The notes under the pieces are model-generated. The model did no database searches. It was not told the origin of the DNA and saw only the letters and a program-made list of their open reading frames with translations. Source: Reclinomonas americana ATCC 50394 (taxonomy: Eukaryota). Taken from it: a stretch of DNA of 45,154 nt. The stretch lies in assembly GCA_048213135.1 (NCBI GenBank), contig PS015050.1:59055-104208 (forward strand). Reading direction: 5' to 3'. Every line of letters starts with the position of its first letter. Positions within the stretch are counted from its first letter, which is position 1. The position numbers and the translations under genes were made by a program. Below are positions 1,381 through 37,366 of the stretch, one piece after another.

Positions 1381-4300
1381 CCTCTTCCACCCTCTCTCGC
1401 ACTCACCGGTACGAATGGCCGCCGCAGACTTGGGCTTCATCTTTGCTCGTGCCGCCTCCAGTCGCGCATTGGCCACGGCGGCAGCCTGCACCAATCGATT
1501 TCAATCACCTTTCACACACAACGGAACCATGAAACGGGGAGGGTACACGCAACATTGGCAGCCTCCGGAATGAACACATGCGCAGCCAGTTCCGTGAGAC
1601 CCTCTTGTGACGATGTTTGCTTGCGGCTGTCGGCAACCGGTCAATAAAAAAGCAAGTTGATCAGAACGCTGACAATCGAGAGGGCGACCAACCTGAGCTT
1701 CCATCCCGTCTTCATGTCCAAGAACAAAAGCCAGACGGCCAGGGCCGTGGACAGTGCTGTGACCAACATGAAGAAGAGGATCACAGAGCGGTAGCCGTAC
1801 CTGTGAAAGAGAGAGAGAGAGAGAATGGATGAGTGCACAGTTGCGTCTCATCTCGCCAAGGATGCGGTTGCGACAGAACTTGTCCTTGATGGTGCCGGTG
1901 GCGGGAGCCATGGCGGCAAGACCCGCATTCTGAATGGCTTGCATCAAGCCATATGCTGTACCGACAATCTCCGGCTTGACAACCTCCGGAACACACGGCC
2001 ACAGGGCGGCGGCACACAGCGAGTACATGAGGCCGAGCGTGACCATAGGAATGTACGGGTTGATGGCCGTGAACGCCAGGATCGCGTGGGTGCCAGAGAC
2101 GCCAGCGCATGAAATGACCACTATCGTATGTGGTAGTGAAGTGTGAGACATGTGGTGGAAAGGACCAACAACAGTGAGTGAGCGAGTCCGTGCGTGCGTA
2201 GGCGTGTGCGTGTGCGTGTGCGCGAGAAGAGAGAGGGAGAGAAAGTGCCGAGAAACTGTGCAAGGATCTCCACACGCAAGCTCATGTGTGACCCACGCAA
2301 CGGAACCACGGCTTGTAGCCGACGCGGTCGACCACGAAACCAAATATTGGCGACACCACAGCGGATACTGCGTCGCAGCATCGTCAGCACGACTCCAAAG
2401 ATGGTGACGTGGAGCGACTCACCAATGTACGGTATTGATGCCACACGACCAGCCTCGTCTTGTGACATGTGATTTTGCAGCTCAAAGTAATTACTGCGAT
2501 ATGCGAGTGATGGTGGTGCTGCGTGAGTTCAACAATGCCCTCTCTCTCCCCCGCTTTTCCGCACTCATCACGTTGGACGCAACGTGGAGATGGAAACGAA
2601 CGGGAACACGCCGCCGTAGAAGAGGACGCAGATGAAGAAGACCAGCCACAGGGAAAGCGGAAAGTAGCGCACATCCTTGAGGGAAATGTCGGCACTGGCA
2701 CGACTCTGTTCCGCATGTGAATATCCGTATCCACGGGCAGACACCAGCGTCGCCCACCACGTACCCTCTCCTTCTCCTTGGCCTCGAACTCCGCATCCGA
2801 CAGCATGTGCTGCTCCTTGCGACGCTCCACTCGACGAGAACCCTCTTGAATTCGGTCCAAGACGCCAGAGAGCACACTGATGCCCACCGAGATGCCACAA
2901 ATGATGGCACCTGGCACACACACACACCCGAGGAGGTGAGTTCTCCCAACGCACGCAGTCTCCAATCGATACCACACATAGTTCACGCACCGACCCACAG
3001 CGCCGTGGCCATGCTCGATTTGGTGGCGACCGCCGGCGATACGGCCATGTTGACGGCACTTCCCTGCAGTGCATTGTCAGCAACCTCGTTGACTGTTGGT
3101 TTCTGGAAGACGGGGCACTCAACAATTCGTGACACTGACAGCGTGATACCGAGCGCCATGGCCAGCTCCTTGCCGCTAAAGGTGCGTGTCACGTACAGAT
3201 TCTGCGCCACAGCTGCTCACCCGACAATGTTAGTTCTGCTGCACAGACTCAATGAGAAGCGTAGCACGCAACTGATCGACTCGCCACCGAGACTGCGACG
3301 GGGGATAGAGACATGAGCGATGAGAGAGAGAAGGCGGGGATGACTGGGGACGCATCGATGTACCCGAACAGCGTCCTTCCGCAAATCATCACAATGTACG
3401 AGTTGAGTGAGCCGCCAACAGCAAACAGAATCTGCCCAGCTGTGGTGATCAAGGCGTACAGAAAGCCACCAAAGCTGTGTATGCGAAAGAGAGAGACAGG
3501 GTGAATAAATGTGCTGCGCCATACACTCGAAAGAGCAACGCACCGGATGCCAAACAAGGCGTCGATCAGGTAACCGCCAAAGAACACCATGAACGTGTTG
3601 GGAATCGAGTACACAAGGTAGAGCACTTGGTACTGGTTGGTGTCAATGTGAAGACTCTGCGGTGGAACGTGTGAGCGGAGAACGAAGACGCGATCCGCAT
3701 GGAGAGGCGCAACATCTTGAATGTTGGTCTGCAGCGCGGCTGGGTTGTCGTAGCAGTAGTACGAGCCTGCCATGGCGCCACGCACCGTTGGTCAGTGTGT
3801 CGACAGCTCAGCGTCAAGAACGAGAGTGTGCTCACTCACCGAACGACAACAAGCAGGCGCAGATGAGGAAGAACCAGCGGAACCAGAAGCGATTCGGGTG
3901 ACAGATGGGCAGTCGCTTTCTCGTCTCTGTTCGCTTCACGTCGTCGAGATCCTTGACCAGATCATCCAACATGTGCGCCGACCTCATGCGCGAGCCACCG
4001 GAAGCAAGCTTGCCGCCACCGCGAGATCCCAACGGAAACTCGTCGTCGAGGGGGGTGTTGGTGGAGAAGTTGGCGGAGGGGCGGTTCCTGTGTAGAGGAA
4101 AGGGAGTGCGTGAGAGTGGAAGAGAGAGGGAGAAGGAAGAGAGAGAGAGAGGAGGGCGGGAGAGGAGGGAGGGACAGGAGGGAGGGAGAGGTAGAAATGA
4201 GAAGGCGAGGAGAGAGGGAAGAGAAAGTGGAAGGTAATGAGAGGGAGGAACGAGGAGGCGATTCTGGAGAGTGCAGAGGAATGAGAGGGTGGAGAAGGGC

Positions 4301-5283
4301 ATGAAGAGGGAGGAATGAGAAGGTCACAAGGATTGGAGAGAGGAAGAGAACAGACGACGACAGATGAAAGATGAGATGGAGCAGAGTGGAAGAAGAGATG
4401 TAGAAGGAAATGGAGAAGGTAATGAGAGGGAGGAATGACGAGGTGATCCTGGAGAGAGCAGAGGGGACTGAGACGAGGATAGATGAGGGGAATGGAGAAG
4501 GGAACGACAGGGAGGAATACGAGGGAAGAGAAGAGACGACGACACCAGATGAGAGATGAGAGGGAGCGATGAGGCAGTGCGGAGATGAGAGGGAGAGAAA
4601 GTGGAAGAGAAGGTCATGAGAGGGAGGAATGAGGAGGTGACTCTGGAGAGAGCAGAGGAATGAGAGGACTGCGAGATGGAAGAGAAGAGACGACACCAGA
4701 TGAGAGATGAGAGGGAGCCATGGCAGAGACGCAGGAGGGAATGGAGAAGGGAATGAGAGAGGAGATACTGAAGGTCTGAGAGACGGCAGACGAGAGATGG
4801 CGAGGAGAAGCAGAACAGAATGCCACTGCAGATGACTCTAGAGTCATCAATGCATCGGTATGCTCATAGAGAGACAACACAGAATGAGAGACCACTGGAG
4901 AACAGGCAACTCACACACACACACACAAACATACACACACACAGCGCATTCTTCACCGCCTGAGCACTGATGCAGCGAGCGGAGTCACGCAAGCAGGCGA
5001 CAATGCGTGCGCCATGGCGCCCACCCTCCCTCAGCCCACCCCGCCCGCCCCAACTGCTGCTGCATCACTGAACGCACCCACGCACAGGCGACAGCACGCC
5101 ATACCTCACATCTTGTCACCTCTTCTCTTGCTCTCTCTCACTCACAGTCACTCGCCCAACTCACCATCCTTTCATGTCGCCAGTGAGCAGCGAGCTTGGG
5201 TCGCTGCCAATCAGCAGATCGCCTTCGCGGTCGTCCTCATCGACGCGCCCAAGAAGGCCAGTGCGTTCACTGGCCGAGGCCAT
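1106..5283 (-). CDS. MFSD1: MFS transporter, MFSD1-like (lysosomal type), about 16 exons
   Basis: Spliced translation MASASERTGLL...RWFFLICACLLSFG|SYYCYDNPAALQ...YLVYSIPNTFMVFFGGYLIDALFGIR|FGG...GRTLFG|LGGESIT|VAQ...FSGKELAMALGITLSVSRI|GSAVN...ALWPCVPEVVKPEIVGTAYGLMQAIQNAGLA. Motifs GSYYCYDNP, GGES, GKELA and GTAYG..IQN are typical of the MFSD1 family. The exons 3' of 1690 are uncertain (gap at 1310-1329). Confidence 0.9.
4190..4800. repeat. Degenerate purine-rich tandem repeat (about 190-bp period) in MFSD1 intron 1
   Basis: Block GAAGGT(A/C)ATGAGAGGGAGGAA..GAGG(T/C)GA..CTGGAGAG.GCAGAGG recurs near 4231, 4415 and 4610; GACACCAGATGAGAGATGAGAGGGAGC occurs twice. Confidence 0.8.
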
Positions 5284-5546
5284 GCTGTCAATCGGTGATT
5301 GATTGATGATAGCTGATGATGAGAGAGACAACTGTGGGACCATGATCGTCGAAGTCCGCAGTGTTGTTCTCTATTCTTCTCACACAGCTAAGCAAAGTAC
5401 ACTGTCGGCTGCTGGGTGCAGTCGCTGCATAATTGCACATATTCATCAACGAGGCCAACCAACTGCAAGGCGATTGCATACATCGAGACAACTCCCTCCC
5501 TTCCCTTCTCCTCCCTTCCCTTCCCTCGTATACAACGCACAATAGT

Positions 5547-6525
5547 TTACCGATCCATGCTCACGGTGAACGAGGTGCCACTGCGGCCTTCCGGTGGTGG
5601 CCGACCCGAGCGGTGCTCCACCAAGTATTCCCACGCCTGCTGCAACGGCGCCAGCAACGACGGCGGCGGTGCCTCTCGTGGATCTGCAGACGCTGCCGAC
5701 CTCTTGCAGAAGACGTAGCACACAGCACGCGGCAGCACCACGCCCTCGGCCGCCTGCACCTGCTCCGCACACCACACCGCCAGCACACTCAACCCGGCAT
5801 CGCTGGCGTGGCTCTCAAACTGCTCGGCACTCGGACGCGACGGATCCATGACAATCGCCAAGCCGGTATCCGCGCGCAATGCACTGGCAATGGCCGACGC
5901 CACCGGTCGCGAGTGCGCACCGACAAACAGCACATCGGAACCAATCACAACATCACACGAGCCGACGAGATCCTCCGGCAGCGGCTGATGCCAATCCAAT
6001 CGCTGTGCTCGCACGCGATCCGCAACGCCATTGGCGCTGGCACTGGAACGCACTGCCATCGCAACGTGATGAGCCTGAGGAGACAACTCTCTCGCGCAGT
6101 CTCTGTCTCTCTCTCACCGAGCTCGCACGCCTCCTCGACAATGTCCGTGCTGATTACTTGCGTGCTCGCGTCGCCGCACAGCGCTGCCGTGAGACCGCAC
6201 AGACCGGTGCCAGCACCGAGCTCCAGCACGCGACAATCGCTCAGTGCATCACTCGGCAATCCTGTGCGCGCACGTGTGTATAAGCTCTCACTCTCACACT
6301 TGTGCTCTCTTATACGCACACACCGGCAACCATGTCGGCGAGGATGCAGCTGGTGGCCCACACATGCGCCCACAGATGACACTTTGTGGACGACCACGAC
6401 GGCATATTCGATCGCGGATCCACCACATGCATCACTCGCAGAGACAGCGACGCCTGCTGCTCATCACTGCGACGACAGCAGCAAGGCGACAACACAAGGC
6501 ACTGCTCGGCGACTTCCAATGACAT
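5547..6525 (-). CDS. SAM-dependent protein lysine methyltransferase, family 16 (METTL21/EEF2KMT-like), 3 exons
   Basis: Spliced MSLEVAEQ...HVWATSCILADMVA|GLP..CRVLELGAGTGLCGL..VISTD..EACEL|VRSSASANG..RLDWH..DVVIGSDVLF; contains the VW motif, motif I (VLELGAGTG), LDW and the (D/E)xxF motif. Confidence 0.88.
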
Positions 6526-6568
6526 CTTCGCAGCGTGTCCTATGTGTCCTCTTGCTTTCATCCTCACA

Positions 6569-9011
6569 ATGGCGTCGGCTTCGGGTGCCTCGGATGCTGA
6601 GATCACACCGGACGTGGTGCTGGCTTACCAGGCTCCCACAGAAGGTACGCTTAGTGGAGGTGCATGTGTGCGTTTTGCAGCGGCGGTCATGGCGCGGGAA
6701 ATGGCGCGTCACAAAACAAGAGAGCTTTTGTTGTCGCGCGTGTGTGTTGTCTCTTTGTGTGTGTGTGTGTGTGTGTGTGTGATGCAGCTCACATCATGAG
6801 CGCAGATTTCCTGTGTCCGTTGGAGGCTAACACGTATGGTGAGCATTCACAAGTTGTGTGTGCGTGCGCGTCTCTGCTGTCACTCATGTGTGTTTGTGGG
6901 GGGAGCACAGGCGTGGAGTTCCTGTCATTCAAGGTTGCAATTGTTTTGTGGGTGATGATTGATGGGCATTGGTTGCTGAGCTGGGTGAGTTGTCGTCGCA
7001 GATTCGTGATATGGACACGCAACAGGAGATGTTCAGGGTGAGTCGCCTGGAGGAGAGTGGGAGGGGGGAGGAGAGTGAGAGGGGGGGAGTGGGAGAGGAT
7101 GAGCCGCGGGAAGCGGACAAGTCGTATTCAAGGAGTTTGTAAGAGAGTTTGGGAGGATGAGTGGGAAGGAGATGGAGGAAGGAGAGTGGTGCCTGCTTGA
7201 GCTTGGATGCCGCAGATGCAACACTGGAGCTGAGCGTCCAAGAGAGAGAGAGCTTGAAGAAGCTGTACTACGCACAAGCATGAGTGTGATGCACGCGGTG
7301 GAGACAGACGCAACGCAGGAGCAGAGTGTGAAAGAGAGTGGGCATGGCAAGTGAGGCATGAGTGTGATGCACGTGGTGGAAGAGAGGAGAGGGACGAGAG
7401 ACAGACGCATCGCAGGAGCAGATTGTGAAAGAGAGCATTCTGAGTGAGAAAAGCTGTACGCGAGAGGCATTCGTGTGATGTACGCGGTGGAAGAGAGGAC
7501 GGAGAGACAGGTGCAACACGGGAGCAGAGCGTGAAAGAGAGACGATGACAAGTGAGGCATGCGTGTGATGCACGTGGTGAAAGAGAGGAGATGGACGAGA
7601 GACAGACGCAACACGGGAGCAGAGTGTGAAATGGAGAGAGAGAATGGGAGAGAGAGAGAGAGAGAGAGAAGCTGTACGCGAGGCGATGCACGCGGTGAAG
7701 GAGAGGACGGCGCAACACACGGGAGTAGAGTGTGAAAGAGAGACGGCATGACAAGTGAGGCATGCGTGTGATGCACGTGGTGTAAGAGAGGAGAGAGATG
7801 GAGAGAAAAACCAATGCTGCACAGGAGCTGTGTGAAAGAGAGAGAGAGAGAGAGGGAGCACGCCGACTTGAAGAAAGCTTTGACTTGAGAGTCATGCGTG
7901 TGATGTACGCCCTGGAAGAGATAGAGAGAGAGAGAGAGAGAGAGCGTGTCGAGTGAGAGAGGATGAGCCGCTGGGAACTCGTGACAAAGCTGCACGGCAA
8001 TGCTGGAAGAGACGAGTGCGCGAGAGGCATGTTCGTGACACTCGTGCCGTTAGAGACAGATGTGTGTGGCCAGCAGGAAGACATGGTGAAAGTGCGAGTC
8101 ATGATGCTGCAAGGCTGACACCGAGAGTGAAGGCACACGCCCAGACAGACAGGCAGATACACACACGCACACACACACACACACACGCAAACACTCACAG
8201 GCAGGCAGGCAGGCAGGCAGGCAGACAGACACCGAGAATGTGTGAGAGAGAAATCTGCACCCTGTCGTCAAGTTTGATGATTATGTTGTTATTTCGATTC
8301 TGCTTGGGAGAGGCAGCTGCACATGAGGCTTGGAGAGATGAAGAGTGAGGCTGGCGGATACTGTGTTGGAGATCGTGACGCACATGTAATCTCTGCCTTA
8401 TTGCGCGCTGCTGCTTGCCCCGCCACGCTCCTCCCTCGTCTCACCCCTTCTGTGGATCGCAGGTGGAACGAGACCCCACAATGGCCGAAATCCCACTGGA
8501 TGAGATGACGGAGGCCGAGAAGCAGGCGTCGCGCATTGTGCGCTACAACTTTGGCTCGCAGTTTCTCAACTTGCGAACGATTGGCACAACGTTGTGTGCG
8601 CTTCTTGCCCGCTTGCTTTTTTTTCTGCTTCTTCTTCCTGCTCACACGCGCGTATGGCCCATGCACAGACTCGAATTCAGGGTCGGCGACCAGCCGGTAC
8701 CGAACCTGCGCATGATTGAGCGGCATTACTTCCAGGACGAGTTGCTGCAGAGTTTTGATTTCATTTTCCCGTTCTGCATACCAGGCAGCACCAACACATG
8801 GGAGGTCATCTACAACATGCCGCGATTGTCGGAGGACAAGGGTGAGTGCCCAGCCTGCGTCACAAAATAGTACGATTGGCGCTCACTTCGTCCCGATGCA
8901 GCGCGTGCCATGATGGACCACCCGTTCGAGACCTCGTCGGACTCGTTCTACTTTGTCGACAACAAGCTGATCATGCACAACAAGGCCTTCTACGCATACC
9001 TCGACGAATGA
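6569..9011 (+). CDS. UNC119: UNC119 homolog (myristoyl-cargo carrier, PDE-delta/UNC119 fold), 7 exons
   Basis: Spliced [130 protein letters not shown]..|..[29 protein letters not shown], matching the UNC119 signature motifs. Confidence 0.95.
7260..7920. repeat. Degenerate minisatellite (about 7 units of 80-120 bp) in UNC119 intron 4
   Basis: Recurrent GCATG(A/C)GTGTGATGCACG(T/C)GGTG...GGAGCAGAGTGTGAAAGAGAG units with alternating AAGTGAG and AAGCTGTACGCGAG linkers. Confidence 0.85.
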
Positions 9012-13173: not shown

Positions 13174-15989
13174 TTACTGTACAGCGCTGGGAGAGTGCGT
13201 GCGGTGTCGCAGCAATTCAAGCTTGGTCTTGACAGCATCTGCAAGAGGACATGAGTGGCTGATAGTAAATAGAATGGTGCCAGCACAGCAACTCACCAAC
13301 GAGCTGATCGTCCAGCGAGTCGTCCAGATCGCCGAGTGCACCGCGCGCGTCGTGTCCGTGGTAAATGTACGCCACTTTCGAGGCTCGCTTGGCGCGCTCA
13401 CGCAGCTGCTCCAGTTCCATGGCCCGTCGCTGCTCGTCTTGCAGCTTTTCGGGACTGACATGCTTGGCGTTCTTCACCGAGTGACGCAGGTTCTCTCGTC
13501 CGTGCTCGTGCATCAGCTGCCGAGAAAGTGAGAACAACGGCCACCGAAGAGGGACAGCACGAGCATTGCGCACGCAACTCTTCTCCTCTCCACCTCCTGC
13601 TCCGCCTTGGCGGTGGCCTCGGCTGAGAAACTGGTCACCAGCTGCGGCTTCCACTTGCGCCTGCGTGACGACAACGACGAATGATGAGCAATGTGTTCGA
13701 GGAGGAGCGTCAGTGCACAAACGCACGCAACATGCGAGCTGGTGCACTGGAGCGTTCAGGCGACACTCCTGGTGGTGCGGACACGGGCACTGTGGACCAG
13801 TGCGTGAGTAAAGGAAGAAAGCGACAGAGTGAGTCGTATGACGCAACGATTGGTGCGGTAGTTGGCATTGTCCAGTTCCGACGTGGTGGCCATGATGTCG
13901 GCCGGCTCGGTCTGCGCGCGCCGTGCTGGAGAACGACTGACCTTTTGCTGGTGGTAGACAGGGAAAGTGAGGCACGTGAAACAACAGCGCAATGTGGCAC
14001 GCGGAATTACACACCTCAGTTTCGACTTTGAGCTTCTCTCGTACAACACGGTCGTACTCCTGTCGCCGGATTAGGGTGGCCTTTGCCTTTTCGGCCTCGA
14101 GTTGTGCAAGCTCTCGGCGCTTGCGCTCCTCCTCGACCACCAGTGCCTGTGAAGATGTATGATGATGAGGAGGAGGAGGAAGAAGAAACGAGATGTGCTC
14201 CTCATTCACGCACCATGGCCTTGCCCTCGTAGAACTGATGCAGAGGGGACACATTCCTCACCGGTTGCGGTGGGTGCCGCAACATTTGCATCTGCGCCAC
14301 TCATCGCCAGTCAGCATTTGCATCCATCTCCTTCTACTCTTGCTCAGACAAAGACGCAACGACTGCCTGGTACCGAGTGCTGTGCTCCGCAATCTCGGCC
14401 AGCACACCGTTCTTGGGGTGATGCTTCTCGTACCGCTGTGCCAGCAGCTTCCTCTCTTCCTCGATCTCGGCGGCGCGCTCTGCCATGCACATGTCAACAC
14501 AATGACTTCGATGCAACATCACTACGCAGACGATACCACGCACCCATTGCCTCCTTTTCTTGCAGCATCTGGAACAGGTACTTTTGATGCTGGCTCGAGT
14601 GTGCATTCTCCGACACCATTCGCATCTGCGACAAGAGACGCGGTGAGTCGGGTGAGCGGAAAAGCGCAATGCACAGAGACAGCAATCCAGCTCACCCGTA
14701 GCTCGCGTTCCTTTTGCTGCTCCCTCCACTTGGTGTACTTGACCTCGCGCTCCGCCTTCTCCTTCTCCTGCCACTGCGCAGCGCGCTGCTTCACCTCCTC
14801 CGCATGCGCCACCTGCTGCGCCATCCATTGCTCCTTGGCCTTGGCTTCGCGCTCCTGTAGACAGATTGTGAGGAGAGGAGCGGGGCACCCAAGAGAGTGA
14901 TATCCACACTCACCAGGCGAGCCTGCTTGCGCTTCTCGTCCTCCTTGCGCAGTGCCGCGTGGCGCTGCAGCAACTCGCGCTGTCCCGGCGACAGGTTGCC
15001 CAGCGACGGAAGCGGGCGTCGCTGTGGACTCGCATTGTTGCTGCTGTTGCTGTGCTGCGTCATCGATGGTGGCAAAGGCGCAGGCGGGCTCATTGTCGAG
15101 TCGTCGCTCTCCGGCAGCGCAGTCAGCATGATGGTGGGTGGGGTGGCCGGGGGCTGTGGAGGGGAAGGAGGGGAAGGAGGGGAAGGAGAGGGTGAGGGGA
15201 GGGGGAAGGAGAAGGAGAAGGAGAAGGAGAGGGGGTGGAGGTTGAGAGGAGAAGGAGTGCTGTGGAAAGGTGTGGAGAAGGCGAGAAGAGGGAGATGAGA
15301 AGAGAAGAGATCGACAAGAGATGAGAAGATGAGAAGAAGGGGTGGAGTTGAGTAGAGAAGAGATCGGCAGGAGAGGAGGTGAAAAGGGAGGGTGAGTGGA
15401 AGGAGAGGAGAAGATGCGGAGAGAGGTGATCGGAGTAGAAAAGAAGGAGAGGAGAGGGAGAGAGAGAGTGCGTGTCTCGCTCAGCCCTCTCCTCTCTGCT
15501 CTCTGCTCCCTTCCTCCCTTCTCTCTCTCTCTCNNNNNNNNNNNNNNNNNNNNNNNNNNNNNNNNNNNNNNNNNNNNNNNNNNNNNNNNNNNNNNNNNNN
15601 NNNNNNNNNNNNNNNNNNNNNNNNNNNNNNNNNNNNNNNNNNNNNNNNNNNNNNNNNNNNNNNNNNNNNNNNNNNNNNNNNNNNNNNNNNNNNNNNNNNN
15701 NNNNNNNNNNNNNNNNNNNNNNNNNNNNNNNNNNNNNNNNNNNNNNNNNNNNNNNNNNNNNNNNNNNNNNNNNNNNNNNNNNNAATCCAATACAATCGGC
15801 ACAACGTCATTTTTCTCTCTCATCAAACGCGGAAGGCGGGAGAAGACAATGAACACACACACGTGGAGAGCAGAGAGCAGAGAGAAGAGAAGGAGAGAGA
15901 GGAAAGGAGAGCGCCACGTAATCGGACAACATTCACACCTCATCACTGCTCGTCATCTGCATCGTCGCGGTCTCCACCAGCTCGCTCAT
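13174..15989 (-). CDS. Uncharacterised charged coiled-coil protein, about 11 exons (gap at 15534-15783)
   Basis: Exons MSELVETATMQMTSSDE|...RELLQRHAALRKEDEKRKQARL|EREAKAKEQWMAQQ...|...RKWKPQLVTSFSAEATAKAEQEVERRR|LMHEHGRENLRHS...DDQLV|DAVKTKLELLRHRTHSPSAVQ*; most junctions checked are phase-consistent GT-AG. Confidence 0.75.
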
Positions 15990-19200: not shown

Positions 19201-19818
19201 GAGCAGGCGATGGATGTGAACGGCAGTGGAGAGCAAAGCAAGAAGAATGAGGGGAAGAGTGAGGAGGGGAAGGGGGGAAACGGAGAAGAGATGGAGAGCA
19301 AAGGAGAAGAAGAAGTAGAGTGGAAGCGATGAAGACGTGGCGAAGGTTGTCAAGAGGTAGTGGAGAGGAAACCAAGAAGAATGGAAGTGCTGAAGAGGAG
19401 TTGAAGGATGTGAACAAGGAGTGGCGAGGAACATAAACGAGAATGGGATGGATAAGGAGGAAGCGAAAGGAAAGGCAACAGAGAAGAGAGGGAGTGCAGT
19501 GAGGAAGAACGGCTGAGAAACACGAGAAGAACAGGCGGAGGGTGTGAAGAGGGAGCGGAAAGAAGAACAAAAAATGTAAGGAAGAAGTGGAGGCGAAGAG
19601 AAAGAGAATCGGGGAAGAGAGGGGAGAAGAAACACAAGAAGAAGAATGGAATGGCAGCTCCGAGAAAGAACAGGCGATGAATGTGGGGAGAAAAACAGCC
19701 GAAATAGAATGGAAAAGAGAGAAGATTAGACTAGCGAATGGCTGGGGACTAGGAAAGAGGAGGATAAAACGACGTATGCAAGTGCGCCTCCTGCACGGGC
19801 AGAAGCTTTGCTTCATTA

Positions 19819-19849
<31 letters not shown>

Positions 19850-20676: not shown

Positions 20677-20707
20677 TTTTTCCTATATCCCATTTTCCCT
20701 CCCTTGA

Positions 20708-23700: not shown

Positions 23701-26700
23701 GCAAGTCAACAGCGCCAACGTTGCGGTGGCATACATGCATACAGTGCTTGTCTGTTAGGAAATGTGCACTCACAGCTGTGTGCACAGGGCGCCTCCTCCA
23801 CCCTGGCCATTGAGGTGCACCAGCTGGAGGAGGAGCTGACTCGCGATCGTCAAGCAGGCATGCATGTGATGGCCAGTGCGCGGTCGCGTGCCGAGTCGCC
23901 GGCGCTCACAGGGTGCGAAGAAGGGGCGCGGAGAGAGAGAGAAGGGAAGGAGGCTACAAGTAGCAAACAGATGTTCGCGTGTGTTTGTTTGCACGAACGA
24001 GAAACGATAGTGCAGTGAGAAACATACTGTTGTGGAGAGAGAGAGAGAGAGAGAGAATGTGTGTGTGCGTGTGTGAGAGAGAAAGCAGCAGCAAAAGTGG
24101 ATGCGTGAGAGAGTGGCGAGAACATGAGATAGTACTGTGCGTTCTCTTGCCCGGTCGCTCTCGTTGCGCTCGATCACTCGCTCGGGTTCTTACCGTCATC
24201 TTGCGCGGTCATCTCAATTGTTTTCCTCATGTCTGCAGGTCGAGGTCGCGTGGAGACGTGCCAATTGATGTACAGCTGGCTCGGTTGCGTTGCACTGCGT
24301 GCATGTCTGTCTCACGACTGCACTCTTACTCATCTCTATCTCTCTCTCAATAGCGAGGCCGCTCGCCTCTCGCGTCAGATCTCCAGCACCCGCCTGTCCA
24401 CGAACTCCGTGGAGATTCTTGGCGAGTTGGAGATGCGCCACTTGCAGCGCTCCGAAACCGCACAACTGTTGCGGCAGTCGACGCAGGCGATCGAACACAG
24501 CTTGCATGCGGCTCGTGACGAATTGCGCGCGCTGGAGTCGGCACTGACGACAGACAATGAGCAGAATGTCAGACACATTCTGCGCCGCCTGGTCATGGAG
24601 CGCAGCAAGGAGGTGGAGTCGCTGGAGGACCGACTGACGCAGCGTCTGCAGCAAATCAGTGAGCGACGAGCCGCCGGCCTCGATGAAGGCGACAGCGTGC
24701 GGAGCTACGCGTCGTCCGCCAGTCGCGCGCCCGATCACTCACGTGCAGCGTCGTCCTCGCCCGATTTCCGCTCGTTGCGTCTTGCCCTGCCTGCAGAGAG
24801 CACTTTGCACTCGCGCCGTGCAAACTCGTGCGTACTGCACAGAGAGGAACGGTCGCCTCTTCTCGATCAGAGTCTGTCGCAGCTGGCGCCCGCCACCCCC
24901 GGCTCATCACAGCCCTCCGGCAACTCCGCCTCCACGCTCGGCTCGCTGCACATGTCGAATTCGGCCAACATCACTGTCGACGACTACCGCAAGATGGAGG
25001 CCGAGTATCGCGAGACGCGACGGGAGCTGCAGCAGCTGCGCGATGAGCTGCATGAGGCACAACACCGACTTGCCGGTCACAGTCAGGTGCGAGCCGAGTC
25101 TTCGATCACGCTATCAGGTGTGCATCTCACGTCGTTGTACCCGTGCATCCGCAGTTGGTGGAGCAGCAGGAGGTGTTGGCGGCAGAGTCCGATGATTTGC
25201 GACATGAGGTGAATTGCAGGCAGAGCAGTATCGGTGGAGAACGAGACGAGCTCACTCTGTTGCATGTAGTTGCTCGATTTGACGCACACGTGCGAGAGAC
25301 TGCGCGTGCAGTTGAGCGAAAGTCGTCAGGCGGAGGAGCGCACCATGTCCGCCCTTCGACAAGGTTGAGTGATGAGCGTATTGTAGGCGGCATCGGTGCA
25401 CGCTATTTACTGTGATCGTGTGTGTGTGTGTGTGTGTGCGCGCGCAGCTGACGCACAATTGGCCTCGCGAGTCGGCGTGGAGAATGTGCTGCAGTCAGAC
25501 GTTGCCGCCATGCGTACGCATGCCGATCGGCTGCAGGAAGAACTCACGCGAATGCAAGCACGTCTCGAGTTGGCGCATCGCGACGAGGCCCTGTTCCGAC
25601 AGCAAGTGGAGGACCTGCGTGTTGAGCTAGACGGCGCATGCCGCGAGCGCGACGAGCTGCGCCAGCACGTGGCGTCATTCATGTCGGAGGAGTCGGTGCC
25701 ACAGAGCCCCGGCGTGTCGCCGTCGTTTCGTCCATACGAGCACTCTTCGTGCGATTGGGGTGTGCTTGCTGACACTTTTTTGCAGGGTACTTGCCGCTCG
25801 CGAGTACGAGATTCGTCGGCTGCAGAGCGACTTGGAGGGTGCACGACAGTTGAGTGGTAACTGGTTGAGGGTGGCACAATACCATATGGGCTAGTGTTCT
25901 ATTTCACTGTTTTTGCATGCTGTTTTTCTTGCTGCTGAGTATCGCCATCCTGCCACTGTAGGTCACTGCGGGAGCAAGAGGCCAGTCGTACAGATGTTGA
26001 CGAACGACTGGAACGACTGCGCACTGCACTGGAGAACGAGCAGGCATCCAGGCTCGCCGATGCCGAGGATTACGCTGCGCGTCGTCGGGAACTGGAGGAA
26101 CGCCTTGCCGCTTTCGAACGGTTGGTTTGCCTCGGATCATCGCACGTTGTTTTAAGTGGCGCTTGCTTCTCATCAATCTTCGCTGTAGCTCGGGCGATTC
26201 CGTGCATGCGGAGGTGGAACGAGTGCGCCGCGAGCTGGATGAGTCGCTGCTGGCCAGGCGGCAGTCCGAGGACGCCTTGCATGTGATGCATGCCGATGTC
26301 GAAGTGTTGCGGCAGGAGCATCAGCAGTTGACGCTCCGTCACGAGGAGCTGCTCATCACGGTGGAGACGGAGCGTATGCGTGTGCGAGAACTGGAGGCCG
26401 AACGGGACAGCCTGACTGCGGCACTGGAGGCCACACGTGTGGAGAGCAAGCAGGCGTTTGACGCGGTGGCAGCCGCGCATCGCACGCTCGACACGGTTGG
26501 CCCTGACACGATGCACGATGTTCGCCTGCTGATCAACATCATGCTCGGTAATATGGCACTCCTCTTTGACGGTGTGCGCCACTCGGTGGCCGATTTTGGT
26601 GGAGACAGCTTGCCGGGTGTGCGTGTGTTGGAGCCTCGTTGCGTGGGCGGGAAGGGTGAAAAGGGAAGGGGGATGAGGGAAGGGTGCAAGGGGGAAGGGT

Positions 26701-27770
26701 GCAAGGGGGAAGGGTGCAAGGGTGAAGGGTGAAGAGGGAGGGGGAGGGGGAAGGGGATGAGGGAAGGGTGCAAGGGGGAAGGGTGAAGAGGAATGAAGAG
26801 GGAAGGGTGAAGAGGGAGGGGGAGGGGGAAGGGGAAGAGGGACGAGGGATGAGGGAAGAGGGAAGGGAAAGGGGAAGGGGACGGGGATGGATGCGAAAGA
26901 GAAGGGGAGGGAGAGGAGGGATCGGAGAGGAGGGAAGGGCAAAGAAGGATGGGCGAAGAGAGAGGAGCGAAGAGGGATGAGAGAGAAAGACGATTGACAT
27001 ATAAACTGAGACAGAGTGAGTGAGAGAGAAACAGACAGACAAACAGACAGACAGCCAACCAGCTAGCCAGACAGCCATATACAGACATAAAGACAGGAGA
27101 GAGAGAGAAGGAGAGGAAGAGGCACACAGACAAACAGACAGACAGAGACTGTCTGAGACAGACAGACAGACAGTCAGACAGAAGAAACAGAGAGACATCA
27201 AGTGCGTGGGACAGCCTGATAGACTGATAGACTGAGAGAAAGAGGGAAACAAGACAGCCAGACGGACAGGCAGACAGAGAGAGAAACGAGAGGGCACCAG
27301 ACGTAGGACTGATGGAGATGGTCAAAGAAAAACGATATGACCTGTGTCCGAACCGAGAGGACATTCAAGATGACTGATTGCACAGAATGCGCAGCAGAAT
27401 ATCAGATTGCACATGTAAGAGAGAGAAGGCAGACGGATAAACATGAAAGGGAGAAACCGATAAGATTCGCTCTCTGTTTCTCATTGAGTCATGCAGAATT
27501 CGTTACCGAGTTGTGCGATGTGCTGCAAGAGTTTTGCCGCAACATTCTCACGACGTTCTCGGCCGAGGAACCGCCTGGAGGTGAGCAAGTGTGGGAAAAG
27601 GAGAGGGGGAATGCAGAGAGTGGACCTCTCAGATTTCTGCTCGCACAGGTCCCTACAGCTCGCAGAGTCTCCCTCCGCGACTCTTGTCGCCTGTGCGCCA
27701 CCGATCGTACACGGGAGAGTATGACGGCGACACGGCACCTTCGAGTTTCGTCCACCGCGCGTGGTTTCCT

Positions 27771-27809
<39 letters not shown>

Positions 27810-30800
27810 CTCGCTAACACATCTGGCCAGCGTTGCCGCCCACGAGTGTCCGCGACTCCTCCGGTCCCGGATCCTTCGACCGGCGTGTGTCTGACTACTC
27901 GTACGACAACCAGTGGGACTCGGCGGCGGCCGGAGGCGGCGATGGGGTCGACGAGTTTGGCGCTCCACAGCGGCGCATCTCAGTTGGCGGAGACGAGGAC
28001 GGTCGCGCGCACGAACCGAGCGTGTTGCATCGACAGGAGGCGGCGGATCGGCGTCCGGGTGACCGACAGGCGGTGGCGGCGGTGGCAGCAGCTGGCGACC
28101 GGCGTTCGTCCGCCTTTAGTGTGCAGGGTCCGTCGCCCGCCGCAGCACGGCCACCGCAAGCGCCGTCGTCACCACCGCAGCAGCAGCAGCCGCAACAGCG
28201 CCATGCCGGTGCGCCGGAGGTGGAGTCCTTCCGACACTATCGACGCGGCGAGTCGCCGACGCAGGAACGCGACACGTACCGCATCGACGGGCAGGATGAC
28301 TCGCGCTACGATTTCTCGTCGCTGCGGCGCGAGGCGCACATTGAAGATGTGCTGGCGGCGGGTGGCGCCGATGAGTTTGGCGAGGGCACGGTGGTGGAGC
28401 AAGAGGGTGGGGATGTGGTGCCGGCGCCGGTGAGTGGAAAGGGGCGGAAGGGGGCAAAGGAAAAGGGGGATAAGGGGAAGGGAAGGGGGGAGGGTAAAAA
28501 GGGGGTAAAGGGGGAGGAGAAGACCTGGGAAGCGTGGGGAAGGTTGTGAAGGAGAAGGGCGGGAAGAGATGGAAAGTGTATTTGAGAGAACAAGGATGGA
28601 GGTGAAGGATGGAGAGCCGCGGAGGAAGGAAAAGTGGGAGGGGAAGAGAGGAGATGGAGGCAGAGGAGGCTTGAGGAATGGATGGGAAGGAAAGCTGGAG
28701 GGAAGCGAGAGCGAGATAGAAGTGGGAGAGGAGAGAGAGAGGACAGGAGGTTTGCAAGTGTTAAGCTGGCGAGGATCGGAAGAAAGATGTGCGCAGCAGT
28801 CCGTGTTACGGAAAGCGTGCAAGAACGAGAGAGGGCCTCATTACGATAAATGAGCAGAGATGTAGAAGGCTACGAATGAAGGTGGTGCGCTGCAGTGAGT
28901 AACTGAGGAAAGATTGAGAGTTGTGCAAGAGATGTTCAATTCTATACGAGTGGCAATCATGCTTCGACGCCCATGTCTGTTGTATGTAGGACGGGCAAGG
29001 GAGTTTGAGTTTGCATGTGTTGTCAATGACGTGTAATTGCCTCTGCTTGCTCACTGATACATCGCCCATTGTTGACAGCTGCGGTCACCGTCACCCAACC
29101 GGCCACCTCGTGCTGCAGGTCTTGCGTCTGGTTTTGTCGCTCACTCACTATTTCACGCGCGTCACGCTCACTCCCTCTTCATCATCTTGGTTCTGTGCAG
29201 GTGCGGAGGCCGGCAGTCAGGCACGAGTGTCGGTGGCCTCTCGATCGTCACGCTCCACCGGCAACGCTTCGTGGCGGCGCTCGCTGAATCCGGCCTTGCG
29301 CACATCGTTCGAAGAGGCTGGCGCGACACAAAACACCTCGTCGTCCTCCTCGTCGTCTGGCCCGCAAGGCGGCACGCCGGGCAGCGACCCGCGTGGTGAG
29401 CTTGCTGCACTTGTCGCATCGACTGTGACTTGGTGCCATCTGATTGAGTTTTATTCCCCAATAGCTCGGCGACGAACGCCTGCTGTGGTGCACGACCCGC
29501 GACTGACAGATGTGGAGGACAACTTTTCTGGTGGTGCCGGACAGCTACTTCGTCGCCTGCAGCTGTTGCGTTGAGCACACAAGTGCTGCTCGATGTGGGA
29601 TGCATATGTGCCTGACATCCATGGCGTCTGTTTGTAGGACGGTCGAGGAGGCGCGGGGACTCGAGGCACAAGATGTTGAGTGTTTGTTGCATTGTGGCTC
29701 CTGTGTCTCGCTACGCCTCACTCTTGTCGCGTATGCACATAGGAAATGCTGCAATTGTTGAACGACTTGGAGGCAGAGTATTCGCAGGCCGTTGAGACAC
29801 TTCGCGCGCACCCGGTGCCTGGTGCGTCGCAGCATGGATCTGTGAGTGGCCACCTCTTGTAATGCGACGTGCTGACCAGTTTGTCGATTGTGGCAGATGC
29901 GAGCGTGCAAAAGCTGGCCACCGACGTGTGCCGTACTGCGTATGTGCGGACGATGCAGGAGGTTGTGAGCTTTGTGGACGAGCGACTCGACGAGCCGCCT
30001 GGTGCCGGAAGTTGCGGTGGTGGATTACGAGATTTGTGTGAAAAAGAGATTGTGCGCTGACTTGCTCGCCGGCTCTTCTGCAGCGGGTGCTCGTGAGGAT
30101 GACATGCGCATGGCGGTGGAGCATGTCAAGCTGTATCAGAAGCGACTGGAGGTCGTGTGGAACTATGCAAAGCGGGTGAGTTATGAGGCAGCGTCTGTTC
30201 GCACGCAGCAATCTGAGCGTTTTGTCGTGTGCAGCGCATGGCAGCTGTGCTGCACCTGTCACAGCCGGCTCTGCAGCAGACGGTGCTTGTCACCTCCGAG
30301 ACTGCCGATGTGGAACGCATGGTGCAGCACTTGTTGCATTCGACGGCGTCGGACTTGTACTCGCTGAGGAGTTATGCGGAATATCACCCTGTAGTATCAC
30401 GTCGCATTTGCTGACTAGAACTGGGCTGACAGGTTCGGAGCGAGGCGGCTCGTCGGGCGACGAAGGTGTAGACAAGGGCGTAAGCGCGGAGGGCACTGCT
30501 GCTGCAGCGTCAAGTGCAGCGGCGACTGTTGCTGTGCCAGTGTCGTCGCCGCTGGAGGCCGCATTGCGCAGTCAGTTGGATAGATTGAGTCAGACGTCGG
30601 ATTCCGACCGGCTGAGATACAAGAAGGTGATTGGGAAGAGAGAATGAGGAAGGAGAGAGAGAGAGAGAGTAGGAAGGGAGAGAGAGGGAAAGAGAGAGTG
30701 AGAGAGAGGAGGGGGAGAGAGGGAGAGAGAGAGAGACGTAGAGAACGAGGGCTGAGTGAGGAGAGGCGGAGACAAACGGTGACAAGTTACAATGAATTGA

Positions 30801-32644: not shown

Positions 32645-32691
<47 letters not shown>

Positions 32692-35493
32692 ATCGACTGA
32701 CACTCCGTATCGAGAATCCGTCACTCATCGCAATTGGCGCAGGGCCTGGCCACCGTAATGCGCCGAATGACGCAACGTGTGGAGACTGCGGAGCGTGGAG
32801 TGGAACGACAGCGATTGAAAGCCGGACAGATCAAGGAGCGCGCTGCGGTGCTTNNNNNNNNNNNNNNNNNNNNNNNNNNNNNNNNNNNNNNNNNNNNNNN
32901 NNNNNNNNNNNNNNNNNNNNNNNNNNNNNNNNNNNNNNNNNNNNNNNNNNNNNNNNNNNNNNNNNNNNNNNNNNNNNNNNNNNNNNNNNNNNNNNNNNNN
33001 NNNNNNNNNNNNNNNNNNNNNNNNNNNNNNNNNNNNNNNNNNNNNNNNNNNNNNNNNNNNNNNNNNNNNNNNNNNNNNNNNNNNNNNNNNNNNNNNNNNN
33101 NNNNNNNNNNNNNNNNNNNNNNNNNNNNNNNNNNNNNNNNNNNNNNNNNNNNNNNNNNNNNNNNNNNNNNNNNNNNNNNNNNNNNNNNNNNNNNNNNNNN
33201 NNNNNNNNNNNNNNNNNNNNNNNNNNNNNNNNNNNNNNNNNNNNNNNNNNNNNNNNNNNNNNNNNNNNNNNNNNNNNNNCAGGAGCGTCTCGCGGATTCC
33301 GAGGCGCGGGTGCACTCGTTGCGTGAGCGCATTGTGCAAATTGAGCAGGAGAAAGCGCTGGCGGTGTCGATTGCACCCGACAGTATGAAGGGAAGGTGCG
33401 GGTCGATGTTGTGCACGTCCGTCGATTGACTCTGGGTACTCATTGCGCCACATCACGCCAGCTTCCTGCGCGGCCTCGACTCATTCTCCAAGTTTGTCAA
33501 CGATCGTGACACGGTGGCAGGATCCATCGACGAGGCTCTGCGCCAGGCCGACGCACACAGCATTCTCATGGACGTGTGCCATTTGTGTGACGTGGACTCG
33601 CCGAGTCAAACTGTCGGAGTCCTGCGGCACATGCGGCGAGTGATTGAGCGCTCGCTCATGTTGCAAAAGGTGCGTGGGCACACACGCGAGTGGAACGAAA
33701 CCGTCGTCCTGCATCTCACTGGCGCTTGTCAGGAACTGCTGGCGTTGGGTGCACTGCTGCGGTTGCCGACTGACTGCTCACTGTACGAGGTGCTGGATCG
33801 CATGCGTGAGGTCATTACGGAATCGGAACTCATGAAACGGCGCAAGGTGCGGAGCTCCTCTCGTGTTGCGCCGTGGTTGACATGCACCAACACAACTTTG
33901 TTTTTCTCTGTCAGGAATTCCACGACAATTATGGCGCGGAGGCTCCCACGGGTGTGACGGAAGCGTGGCGGAAGCGTCGCATGTTTGTGCCGGCGAGGCT
34001 AGTGAGACCATTCCGCGAAGTTGAGCAACTGACGACTCTTTTCTCGTGCGTTTGTGTGGGGTGGGGTCACTAAAATGTGCACCGGCCAGTTTGCGACTGC
34101 AGGCAGCACGGAGAGCCTGGGTGCGGATATGTTGCACTTTGCGCACGAGTTTTTGCGAGATTTTTGCTTGGTGGCGCGGCTGGCAGACCCCGTGCGGGCG
34201 GCGAGTGGCAGTTGAGTGGCTGGAAAAGGGGGAGGGGGTGGGGGAGGAAGAGAGGGAGAGAGAAAGACAGAGAAGAAGAGAGAGAGAGAAACAGAGGAAG
34301 AGGAAAGAGAGGAAGAGGAAGAGAAAGAAAAAGAGAGAGAGAAAGAGGATGGGAAAAGATAGAGCGTCAGCTCCAGACGAGACAGAACCACGCATGGCCA
34401 CAAGTTGTTGCCAGAGTGTGAGGCAAGCAGTGTTCTTGATCTAAGTGGCGAGATGACGAGGGGAGACGGACTGGCCACATTGGCAGCTGAGCAGACAAGA
34501 GGTAAAGAGAGAATGGTAACGACGCCGATGTACGACCACGCGAGAGGAGACTCATTGGCTGTCATGACGGCCGTATTATCAACTGAGACCGAAGTCGAAG
34601 CAGGAGTAAGAGGAATAGAGAGAGAGAGAGAGAGAGAGAGGAGGAGAGAGAGAGAGAGAGNNNNNNNNNNNNNNNNNNNNNNNNNNNNNNNNNNNNNNNN
34701 NNNNNNNNNNNNNNNNNNNNNNNNNNNNNNNNNNNNNNNNNNNNNNNNNNNNNNNNNNNNNNNNNNNNNNNNNNNNNNNNNNNNNNNNNNNNNNNNNNNN
34801 NNNNNNNNNNNNNNNNNNNNNNNNNNNNNNNNNNNNNNNNNNNNNNNNGAGAGAGAGAGAGCGACCTTCCACGGACTGACACTTTGTGTTCTTCGTCTGG
34901 TCTCCCAGCGTCCGCCTCACTCAAATCCTGGCAAGCGGACGTGCACCGCGAGCTGCGCTCTCTTGGCAAGATGGTGGATCGCGATGCGGATTTGAAACGC
35001 CGTCTCGCTACGGCACTGGCTTTTGGATTCGCCGATCACATGTCGCTTGCCGAAGTGGTGGACCGAGCGGTGATCTTTATCAACAGCCGCAACGATGCCC
35101 ACGCGCTGTTGGACCGCTACTCTCGCGAAATCACAGACGGTGTGGCGTTGTGTTGTGCACTCTGTGCGTGGCGCATTCATGTCTCACACCGTGGTGCAGA
35201 TACGTCGGAGGTGGTGAATCGGTACAAGGCCGTACTGGAGGCCTTGTGTGACGAACTGCAAGTGGATCGGTACAGCGAAATCTTGGCGGCCGTGTGCGAG
35301 TTGCGGTGGCTGAGGCGTGGCGATGCATAGGATGACTTCATGACTCATGTGAGTGATTTGGTGCAGGTTGACCACGGGCACTCGGTACGAGCTGGCGTGG
35401 ATGCAAAAAGTGCTGGGACGGGTCGCAGAATTGCTGGCTGTTGACTCGGTGGAGCAGATTGTGCCGGCGTTGGTGAGGTTGCAGAGGGCCTGA
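20708..35493 (+). CDS. Very large multi-exon (more than 30) coiled-coil protein with Ser-rich N-terminus and CEP70-like C-terminal helical repeats; putative centriole/basal-body scaffold
   Basis: Exons followed from MSSRRRSQSPPPES to ...KVLGRVAELLAVDSVEQIVPALVRLQRA* (TGA 35491), with heptad-rich exons throughout. C-terminal units DVCHLCDVDSPSQTV, ALCDELQVDRYSEILAAV and AELLAVDSVEQIVPAL resemble the CEP70 tail as I recall it. Three N-gaps interrupt the model and not every junction was resolved. Confidence 0.65.
23238..23478. repeat. Intronic tandem repeat, 3 units of about 78-82 bp
   Basis: Units start at 23238, 23316 and 23396 with GAAGACAGGTGTAC and share CACCGAGACA(T/G)ATGGAGAGTCGTACACACAAGTT. 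Confidence 0.92.
26650..27290. repeat. G-rich 15-bp repeats (GAAGGGTGCAAGGGG) followed by a degenerate (GACA)n tract, intronic
   Basis: GAAGGGTGCAAGGG occurs four times in 26679-26778; (CAGA)-type repeats at about 27010-27290. Confidence 0.8.
31950..32520. repeat. Degenerate purine-rich intronic repeat
   Basis: GAGGTGCGAAG..A..CAGA.AAGGGAAGG recurs near 31951, 32118 and 32202; CTTGCTGTCAAGA and GGAAAGAGGAGACGAGAAA each occur twice. Confidence 0.75.
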
Positions 35494-35592
35494 TAGGAGG
35501 AGGAGGGCAAGGGAGAACGAGGGAGGAGGAGGGAGGGAGGGGGAGTGTATAGAATTGCGGTGTGGTTGGCGATCGGTGACATGCTTGAGCCT

Positions 35593-35915
35593 GGTATCAT
35601 ACACTCTGCAGTAGGAGTTGGAGAGGGAGTAGAAAGAGGAGTGCGTGGAACTGCGGATGAGGCATAGTGATGTGCGTTGCTGCTTCAGTGTTTGGCAAAC
35701 CTTGATCTCCAAGTGACATTTTCGCCTCGGTATCATACGTCTGTAGAAGGAGAAGAAGGGAGCAGGAGGGGGAGTGCGTGGAACGACGGAAGAACAAGTG
35801 TGGTGTGTGTTGTTGCGTCAGTGTTTGGTCTCCAAGCGACCATTTCGTCATGGGAGCAGGAGGGGAGTGCATAGAACGACGGAGGAAGAAGTGTTGTGTG
35901 ATGTGTGTTGTTGCA
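35593..35915. repeat. Degenerate intergenic tandem repeat (about 3 units)
   Basis: GGTATCATAC, GGAGTGC(G/A)T(G/A)GAAC, TCAGTGTTTGG and TCTCCAAG.GAC blocks each recur 2-3 times. Confidence 0.75.
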
Positions 35916-36353
35916 TCGATGGTTGGCGTCCTTACTATACACCCGAGTCAACTCTGTGGGCTCTGTGCTCTTCACCTTTTCGTCGACTCTTGACGGGAAA
36001 GAGATGCAAGCATGTATTCTGGCGTGGCAGAAGCAGGCAGCGTGACTGCCCTTTGCGACCATTGTCGTACTTCAAATGAGGGTACACTCCATGTCGCGTG
36101 ATAGTCGGGCGTATGACTCTGGAATTCTTGTGATCAGGTCGTGCATGCATATGCTTGTGCAAACCGTCGTGCTGCTGTCGGAAAAATGCATCAAGGAAGC
36201 GGTTAGACGTGGCTCACTGCCTTGTATCAACATTCTGCTCAACATGTTGATCATCTTCATGTGGTGTTTTTCTCGTCGGGACAGAAGAGAAACAGTCCAC
36301 TCGCGCTCGGAACTGTCCACACAAACTTATCATACTTCGTTCGCGCTTTTACA

Positions 36354-37366
36354 ATGACTGACCCCGAGGCTGGTTCGTGCCGCGTGTGTTCCCTTGCTCA
36401 CGTTCATGTCCTCTCTCTCTTCGTCCCGCTTCTCGTGTCGCTGTGTATGCGTGTGTGTGTGTTCCGTGTGCGAAATGTCGGGTGGTGTATTCACCCGCTT
36501 TTTTTCTCCGGCCCTTGTTTTTGCCCCCACACAGCTGCGGTGATTCGTGCGTTCCTGGCTGGACCTGAGTTGCGTTCCTGTCTCGAGCGATTTGCACTGC
36601 TGCTTGCTCTTGCTCACATTCGACTGGTGCAGGTTCGAGGCGGTGCGTTGTCAAGAGGGCGTGAACATTTTCTTCTTCTCCTGCTTGCTGTGTGTGTGCG
36701 TCCGTCTGTCTGTCAGTCTGTCTGTCGTGTGCATTTCTCCGCGCCCAGCCGCTGTCGTGTGGTCATGGGTGTGTGTCTGTTTTGTAAAGTGTGTGCACAT
36801 TTCCACACACCTCTCGCTCTCTCGCTCTCCTTTCGCCCTCCCCCGCGGCTCCTCATCCTTCTTCTTCGTTCTTCTCCGTTAGTCCGCCGTGGAGGCTTTC
36901 AAGGAGGCCGACGTTGCGTGGTTGCTCGTTGTCTGTTTTTTTGGCACTCTGCGCTCCTTCGCCCTCAACGCTTTTTTGCCTGTTGCACACACAGACTGAC
37001 CACTCTGGCTTCCTCGACAAGGCCGAGACACGCCAGGTTGTCGACGCGCTGATTGTCGGTACGCGCGTGCATCAAGTGTCATCTTGTCTCCCTCATCTCA
37101 TCCTCGCTGTCATCTCATCCTCGCTGGCAGAGCTCGGCGGTGGCAAGCTGATGGACTCCGAGTTCGAGCAGGCGTTTGCGGACATTGACACTGACGGCTC
37201 GGGCAAGATCGAGCAGAGCGAGGTGAGTGAGAGGAGTGCGCGAGTCGCGCGCGTGGTTCGCGCTGGTGGACTAAATGTGTGTGTGTGTGTTTTTGCTTGG
37301 CAGTTTGCTGCGTTCACCCGTGCTGTGTTCGAGGCGATCGCCGACGCTCTGGAGGGCTCGGCTTAA
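36354..37366 (+). CDS. Small two-EF-hand calcium-binding protein (about 103 aa), 7 exons including a 10-nt microexon
   Basis: Spliced MTDPEA|AAVIRAFLAGPE|FEA|SAVEAFKEAD|TDHSGFLDKAETRQVVDALIV|ELGGGKLMDSEFEQAFADIDTDGSGKIEQSE|FAAFTRAVFEAIADALEGSA*; two canonical 12-residue loops DTDHSGFLDKAE and DTDGSGKIEQSE. Confidence 0.88.

Follow-up and report, generated by a model that had tools for sequence, protein, structure and literature searches.

Roca and Krainer reportedly found in 2009 that human atypical 5' splice sites are read by U1 small nuclear RNA (snRNA) in a register shifted by +1, and Roca et al. are said to have described a bulge +2/+3 register of human 5' splice sites in 2012. U12-type introns, which have their own 5' splice-site reader, U11, a donor of the form [AG]TATCCTT, and a TCCTTAAC-like branch site, show that a second donor class, distinct in sequence and served by snRNAs of its own, can exist. 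The subject of this analysis is a putative second class of 5' splice site, GTTG(A/C)G, usually followed by T, in a stretch of 45,154 nucleotides (nt) from Reclinomonas americana ATCC 50394 (GenBank assembly GCA_048213135.1, contig PS015050.1, positions 59,055 to 104,208), hereafter the window. An earlier reading of this DNA (the original prediction) listed 24 such donors beside ordinary donors of the form GTG(A/C)GT. Here, class 1 denotes GTG[AC]G donors, of which 26 were predicted, and class 2 denotes GTTG[AC]G donors, of which 23 were predicted; all counts refer to the single window, and its gene models, donors, and introns were predicted from the sequence.

In contrast to U12-type introns, the class 2 introns carry no minor-type motif, and their branch sites are major-type-like. 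Assignment to the minor type was rejected, with neither a minor-type donor nor a minor-type branch motif in any of the 22 listed class 2 introns inspected for them. The resemblance to the human shifted register is closer in layout. In that register, as described in the available text of two papers (PMC4856993 and PMC11162779), the U1 helix is displaced by one base and cleavage still takes place at GU, the site being fixed later by U5/U6. The human shifted sites and class 2 share a GU followed by a consensus block that comes one base late, a cut at GU, and the absence of canonical-register support, there being no G at -1 and no G at +5; furthermore, a model oligonucleotide in Table 2 of PMC4856993, in the portion available, has the class 2 layout. 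The differences lie in abundance and in consensus: the human non-canonical registers together are estimated at ~1.5% of sites in PMC11162779, against 23 of 78 predicted introns for class 2, and class 2, unlike the human shifted sites, follows a tight consensus of its own, GTTG(C>A)GT(G), next to a class 1 in which G at -1 is almost invariable. The human STAT3 tandem donor, for which the same available text describes a non-canonical U6 register (PMC11162779), resembles class 2 in that the U6-pairing G-U is displaced by one base relative to the cut site, but there the GU lies one base nearer the cut site and a single human site is concerned, whereas in class 2 it lies one base farther away.

All 24 of the originally listed hexamers were confirmed on the strands given for them (17 GTTGCG and 7 GTTGAG), T follows the hexamer, at +7, in 18 of them, in keeping with the claim that it usually does, and G stands at -1 in 3. 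The two weaker variants also read as described, as GTTGCA at 6934, which lies outside every gene model, and as GTTGTG at 8591. In comparison with 200 dinucleotide-preserving shuffles, the heptamer GTTG[AC]GT was enriched, with 34 copies observed versus 14.8 +/- 3.8 in the shuffled sequences (maximum, 27), and no shuffle equalled the observed count. The excess of ~19 copies is about the number of listed donors with T at +7, and G precedes 5 of the 34 heptamers. Heptamers with an inserted A, C, or G instead of the extra T were not enriched (2 versus 4.8, 24 versus 18.0, and 23 versus 15.3, respectively).

Genes were predicted with a frame-aware exon-chaining parser written for the window, in which any GT was allowed as a donor at equal weight at the start; a first, codon-only gene finder returned 5 genes and was too insensitive. 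The motif-free finder predicted 51 introns, with GTGAGT and GTTGCG tied as the top donor hexamer at 4 each; it shifts boundaries by a few bases and retains in-frame introns, and it is unfit for judging single sites. The finder was then self-trained, with donor hexamers, acceptor weights, and intron lengths learned from its own output, and it converged on 78 introns, among which the leading donors were GTTGCG (18), GTGAGT (16), GTTGAG (5), GTGCGA (5), and GTGCGT (4). Seventeen of the 24 listed sites are among these introns, and those at 2301, 13578, 25849, 34020, 34211, 36569, and 36913 are not. The claim that class 2 serves roughly a quarter of introns agrees with these predictions (23/78, and 15/53 in a stricter subset), as does its spread over many genes, class 2 donors being present in 9 of the 17 gene models. 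Twenty of the 23 predicted class 2 introns are needed for an open frame, and the other 3 are in frame and stop-free.

Homology or domain fit backs 6 of the 24 listed sites (5 in a transporter gene and 1 in an EF-hand gene); with the variant donor at 8591, seven GTTG donors in three unrelated genes are backed in this way. The original description of the gene models as homology constrained stands for the transporter, UNC119-like, and EF-hand genes, and it fails for the other genes, which are without detectable relatives. The MFSD1-like transporter gene was modelled by hand from a three-frame display and has 11 introns, 5 of which begin with GTTG donors (3713, 3272, 3123, 2583, and 2301); the other six donors are GTGAGT, GTGCGT, GTACGT, or GTACAT, with G at -1 in all. 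Each intron was scored with a profile of 17 homologues against all in-frame, stop-free GT..AG pairs within +/-60 nt, and against retention where possible, and the profile ranked the hand model first at 11 of 11 introns (Table 1). The intron with its donor at 3713 is itself in frame and stop-free, so that its removal is demanded by homology alone, and the donor at 2583 is weakly preferred, an in-phase alternative, GTGATG, lying 12 nt downstream.

In the UNC119-like gene, the alignment with UNC119B consists of two blocks, both ending on chain residue 93, and exact colinearity requires the removal of 8591-8668; use of a donor at 8594 instead of 8591 would add one residue. In the EF-hand gene, the exon before the donor at 36913 ends in D and the exon after the intron starts TDHSGFLDKAE, and the joined loop has the pattern of the DTDGSGKIEQSE loop in the following exon. 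The loop would be completed only by the 36913 donor, which is consistent with the Pfam matches, weak as they are (E values of 0.025 and 0.12), in which position 10-11 of the EF-hand profile falls on the first residue of the exon after the intron.

The two classes differ in the last exon base, and the class 2 introns are otherwise ordinary in appearance, being short and closed by AG. G stands at -1 in 21 of 26 class 1 donors and in 4 of 23 class 2 donors (Fisher p = 1.2e-5), and T at +7 (13/23) and G at +8 (11/23) in class 2 mirror T at +6 (20/26) and G at +7 (16/26) in class 1. The displacement of the conserved G from +5 to +6 that had been proposed was borne out among the donors of the window: donors with T at +3 have G at +6 in 21 of 23 cases and at +5 in 2 of 23, and other donors have G at +5 in 23 of 30, the G+6 count being partly circular and T+7 and G+8 being independent. 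Median intron length is 69 nt in class 2 and 74.5 nt in class 1, GCAG acceptors occur in 14 of 23 and 15 of 26, respectively, and all 23 predicted class 2 introns, as well as the 7 that are backed by homology or domain fit, run from GT to AG. A branch-like motif, CT[ACG]A[CT], stands at -45..-8 from the acceptor in 18 of 22 class 2 introns and 12 of 21 class 1 introns, against a background of 314 of 1616 windows upstream of any CAG. In a gene-model-free test, a branch-plus-YAG module was present 50-110 nt downstream of 14 of the 34 GTTG[AC]GT heptamers versus 1017 of 4942 among all GT (p = 0.005); the same module followed 14 of 42 canonical G^GTG[AC]GT sites (^ marks the cut) and, among controls, 19 of 81 GTCG[AC]G and 23 of 127 GTGG[AC]G.

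The existence of a second abundant donor class with its conserved block one base deeper in the intron is supported by the motif and its excess, by homology-defined exon ends, by the ordinary 3' halves of the introns, and by intron counts, and the class is probably real. The same seven-base signal underlies both classes and is cut at a different point in each, as G^GTG(A/C)GT and ^GTTG(A/C)GT. That GTTG(A/C)G(T) truly marks where ordinary GT-AG introns of the major type (U2-type) begin, and forms a second abundant class read in a shifted U1 register, is given a probability of about 0.5; we infer both the actual splicing and the U1 pairing register from the sequence, and the shifted register remains the best reading. 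Under the shifted register, U1 snRNA would pair with class 2 at an offset of one base, with the intron G at +1 occupying the usual place of the last exon G opposite U1 C9, U at +2 left unpaired, and +3 to +7 taking the pairing partners that +2 to +6 have at normal sites; the sole available GU would then be fixed as the cut site by the U6/U5/Prp8 stage. The loss of G at -1 favours such a shift over a bulged U, because G+1 would face U1 C9, and the enrichment of the T insert alone also favours a shift, because +3 must pair with U1 A7. The mirroring of T+6 and G+7 of class 1 by T+7 and G+8 of class 2 fits the shifted register as well.

Several results weigh against the shifted-register reading. 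The hexamer family as a whole is only mildly enriched (81 versus 65.4 +/- 7.3; maximum, 88), and T at +7 is found in 13 of 23 predicted donors versus 21 of 58 other occurrences (p = 0.13). GTTGCG has a sense-to-antisense ratio of 30:11 before any correction for the 129 hexamers, GTGAGT shows no excess (19:13), and such counts are confounded by strand composition. The self-trained finder favours recurring motifs, and its counts are partly circular. When all GTTG[AC]G donors were forbidden, the motif-free parse lost 3.1 of 1071 nats, a loss per occurrence about equal to that of the control family GTGG[AC]G, so that coding potential alone barely requires GTTG donors; this knock-out has too little power, since the loss for the canonical family itself is no more than 23 nats. 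The branch motif CT[ACG]A[CT] had been widened after inspection of the introns, and the test with it was not blind. In addition, the variable base is A or C at 16:10 in class 1 and 5:18 in class 2 (p = 0.009), a reversal not expected if the same U1 were simply shifted, and the predicted pairing with the textbook U1 5' end, an arm from which the organism's own U1 may differ, has a mean of -2.1 kcal/mol in class 2 and -8.1 kcal/mol in class 1, the commonest class 2 form reaching -0.6 kcal/mol.

Both the weak pairing with the textbook U1 and the preference for C, which would lie opposite U1 position 5, would follow if class 2 were read by a diverged U1 paralogue with a 5' arm complementary to GUUGCGU, for example with A for C at position 8 and G for pseudouridine at position 5, and perhaps by a U6 to match. 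The sharpness of the class 2 motif out to +8 points in the same direction, and, in the available text of PMC3561869 and PMC10870369, human variant U1 paralogues with altered 5' arms exist and can assemble into particles; the text available of these papers links no abundant donor class to them. The major spliceosome would then have two parallel readers of 5' splice sites, standard U1 for G^GTG(A/C)GT and a diverged U1 paralogue, possibly with a co-adapted U6/Prp8 region, for about a quarter to a third of introns, which, if true, would add a third kind of intron recognition to the U1/U2-type and the U11/U12-type. This arrangement is considered possible but unlikely, as the -1 G contrast and the T-only insert are explained equally well by a single U1 in a shifted register, and GTGCGT donors are also common, so that class 1 already tolerates C opposite position 5.

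An artefact of the gene models is improbable. GTTG[AC]G could be simply a frequent word (codons GTT-GCG and TTG-CGT), with the true donors at nearby GTs or with coding sequence taken for introns, and the small cost of the knock-out, the mild enrichment of the hexamer, the three in-frame, stop-free introns, and the lack of homologues for most of the host genes are all compatible with this. It accounts poorly for the profile scoring of the transporter, the colinearity with UNC119B, the EF-hand loop, the excess of the heptamer, the association with a downstream branch site and acceptor that was seen without any gene model, and the 20 of 23 introns that are needed to keep frames open.

Slightly less probable again is a helix that stays in the canonical register and loops out one of the two U's at +2/+3. 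For a site that starts with GUU, such a bulge differs from a shift only in what faces U1 C8 and C9, and in human sites of this kind one U can likewise be looped out while the rest pairs normally (Tan et al. 2016, PMC4856993); 68 human sites, or 54 after curation, are predicted in Table 3 of that paper, in the portion available. The exon base at -1 would still face C9 in a bulged canonical helix, so that G would be expected there, and the depletion seen here, both in the predicted donors (4/23 versus 21/26) and in front of the heptamers (5/34), would not. A spurious extra T in ordinary GTG(A/C)GT donors is hardly credible, for although the assembly is gapped and holds at least one probable one-base indel, in a conserved ATPase motif, random errors cannot strike one donor position in ~30% of introns while sparing exons, and homopolymer miscalling was rejected since it can neither remove the -1 G nor reverse the A/C preference. 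A derivation of the introns from an introner or transposon family was likewise rejected, an all-against-all comparison of 43 introns having returned only (GT)n matches.

The individual sites and the genes of the window are collected in Table 1. The original observation is largely correct, and about four of the listed donors are doubtful (34020, 26638, 13578, and 25849) on the grounds of a phase conflict, the lack of a next exon, or in-phase alternatives. The donors at 25849 and 25864 may be used as alternative 5' splice sites, with a difference of five codons between the products, and 26638 may be the end of a gene. The sites at 34211 and 36569 are plausible in hand models and were not recovered by the finder. 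Candidates beyond the original list were identified at 17902, 30011, 33865, 43907 (minus strand), 25864, and 31714.

Table 1. Putative class 2 donors and introns, and recognizable genes, in the 45,154-nt window
Feature	Position	Strand	Donor	Length	Remarks
MFSD1-like major-facilitator transporter gene	1880..3900	-
Class 2 intron, transporter	3657..3713	-	GTTGCGC	57 nt	Best alternative -5.4 bits, retention -8.7 bits
Class 2 intron, transporter	3213..3272	-	GTTGCGT	60 nt	CTAAC branch-like; runner-up -6.0 bits (same donor, other acceptor), best other donor -13.8 bits
Class 2 intron, transporter	3064..3123	-	GTTGAGT	60 nt	CTGAC branch-like; runner-up -9.5 bits
Class 2 intron, transporter	2494..2583	-	GTTGCGT	90 nt	Alternative -2.2 bits
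Class 2 intron, transporter	2121..2301	-	GTTGCGT	181 nt	Runner-up -5.8 bits; self-trained finder picked 2296
Lysine-methyltransferase-like gene	near 5550-6525	-
UNC119-like gene	8481-9011	+
Variant intron, UNC119-like gene	8591..8668	+	GTTGTGT	78 nt	Colinearity with solved UNC119B
Reticulon gene	near 11.7-12.2 kb
Doubtful donor	13578 (13572..13578)	-	GTTGCGTG		Finder chose in-phase GTGGAG donor 15 nt upstream
Class 2 introns, coiled-coil gene	14292-14360, 13790-13847, 13661-13731	-	GTTGCGT	58-71 nt	Frame-required
Class 2 introns	17476-17543, 17640-17707	+			Gene finder
Added candidate	17902-17970	+	GTTGCGG		In frame and open
Class 2 introns, long coiled-coil gene	22587-22745, 23720-23787, 24284-24353, 25364-25447	+
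Two in-phase GTTGAG donors	25849..25961	+	25849 (GTTGAGTG), 25864 (GTTGAGGG)		15 nt apart; one common acceptor
Doubtful donor	26638 (26638..26644)	+			Frame open into purine-rich low-complexity tract; no credible downstream exon found
Class 2 introns	29565-29637, 29675-29742	+			Gene finder
Added candidate	30011-30083	+			Gene finder
Doubtful donor	34020 (within 34020..34217)	+			Phase conflicts with better downstream frame
Listed donor	34211	+			Would bypass in-frame TGA; no downstream exon found before low-complexity tract and gap
Class 2 intron	35300..35366	+	GTTGCGG	67 nt
EF-hand gene	near 36.5-37.4 kb	+
Listed donor	36569 (36569..36632)	+	GTTGCGT	64 nt	Hand model, frame-consistent; finder called no gene there
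Class 2 intron, EF-hand gene	36913..36994	+	GTTGCGT	82 nt	Splits EF-hand calcium loop after first Asp
ENA-type P-type Na+-ATPase gene	~38.5-42.3 kb	+
Added class 2 candidate	43842..43907	-	GTTGCGT	66 nt

Other predicted donors also begin with GTT. Those at 25725 and 27745, both on the plus strand, carry the identical 9-mer GTTTCGTCC, a third, at 31240, starts GTTTCGG, and further candidates are GTTGGT at 26121, GTTGGC at 31362, and the GTTGTG at 8591 already mentioned. The class of donors starting with GTT may be broader than GTTG(A/C)G. Across the two main classes, the acceptors of predicted introns are mostly GCAG (29/49), with the cut after the final G, and intron lengths cluster at 55-90 nt.

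The genic parts of the window are ~57% G+C with numerous short introns, and the scaffold is gapped, with 12 N runs totalling 4641 bases. The nearest database relatives are at 47% identity for the transporter and 67% for the ATPase; for the latter the top named match is Chromera velia (65%), with Tetraselmis at 62-63%. A metagenome scan with an ATPase exon returned 80 loci with a top identity of 53% and no close relative. The remaining genes are coiled-coil or lineage-specific, family and homologue searches with them returned none, and a homologue search with a coiled-coil exon likewise found none. In the Na+-ATPase gene, the frame is lost at 38745-38770 (plus strand), directly after the conserved DKTGTLT phosphorylation motif, with an in-frame TGA, and homology past the TGA resumes in a different frame, as if 1 base were missing; the break reflects either an assembly indel or a disabled gene.

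An Rfam scan of the window gave zero matches at gathering scores and no snRNA, and a search of the window for transfer RNA genes found none. At E <= 1, Rfam gave sub-threshold, microRNA (miRNA)-like matches only, on palindromic simple repeats. The palindromic low-complexity tracts at 15393-15538 and 16503-16667 matched miRNA precursors on both strands at 23-30 bits versus gathering scores of 60-96, and these matches are most likely chance hairpins in simple repeats. Intergenic purine- or pyrimidine-rich low-complexity tracts (GGGAAGG-like, GA, and CA repeats) were found at 26640-27300, 4000-5000, 7000-8300, 18800-19700, and 34220-34440, and they produce long spurious open frames on both strands.

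No GTTG(A/C)G donor class was reported in the open-access papers searched, a scope outside which subscription journals and the figures of genome papers lie, and a lineage-specific description of such donors could exist in print. Shifted or bulged pairing of U1 has been described solely as an infrequent means of rescuing unusual human splice sites; the shifted register itself is known already, and its use at about a quarter of introns would be the new element. A gene finder trained with one donor model alone would place a large fraction of this organism's introns wrongly, which may be why none of the organism's own proteins were found in the protein collection searched. If true, the second donor class would offer a natural experiment on the extent to which U1 pairing and the cut site can come apart, and it could show how U6, U5, and Prp8 handle one extra base before the conserved G-U.

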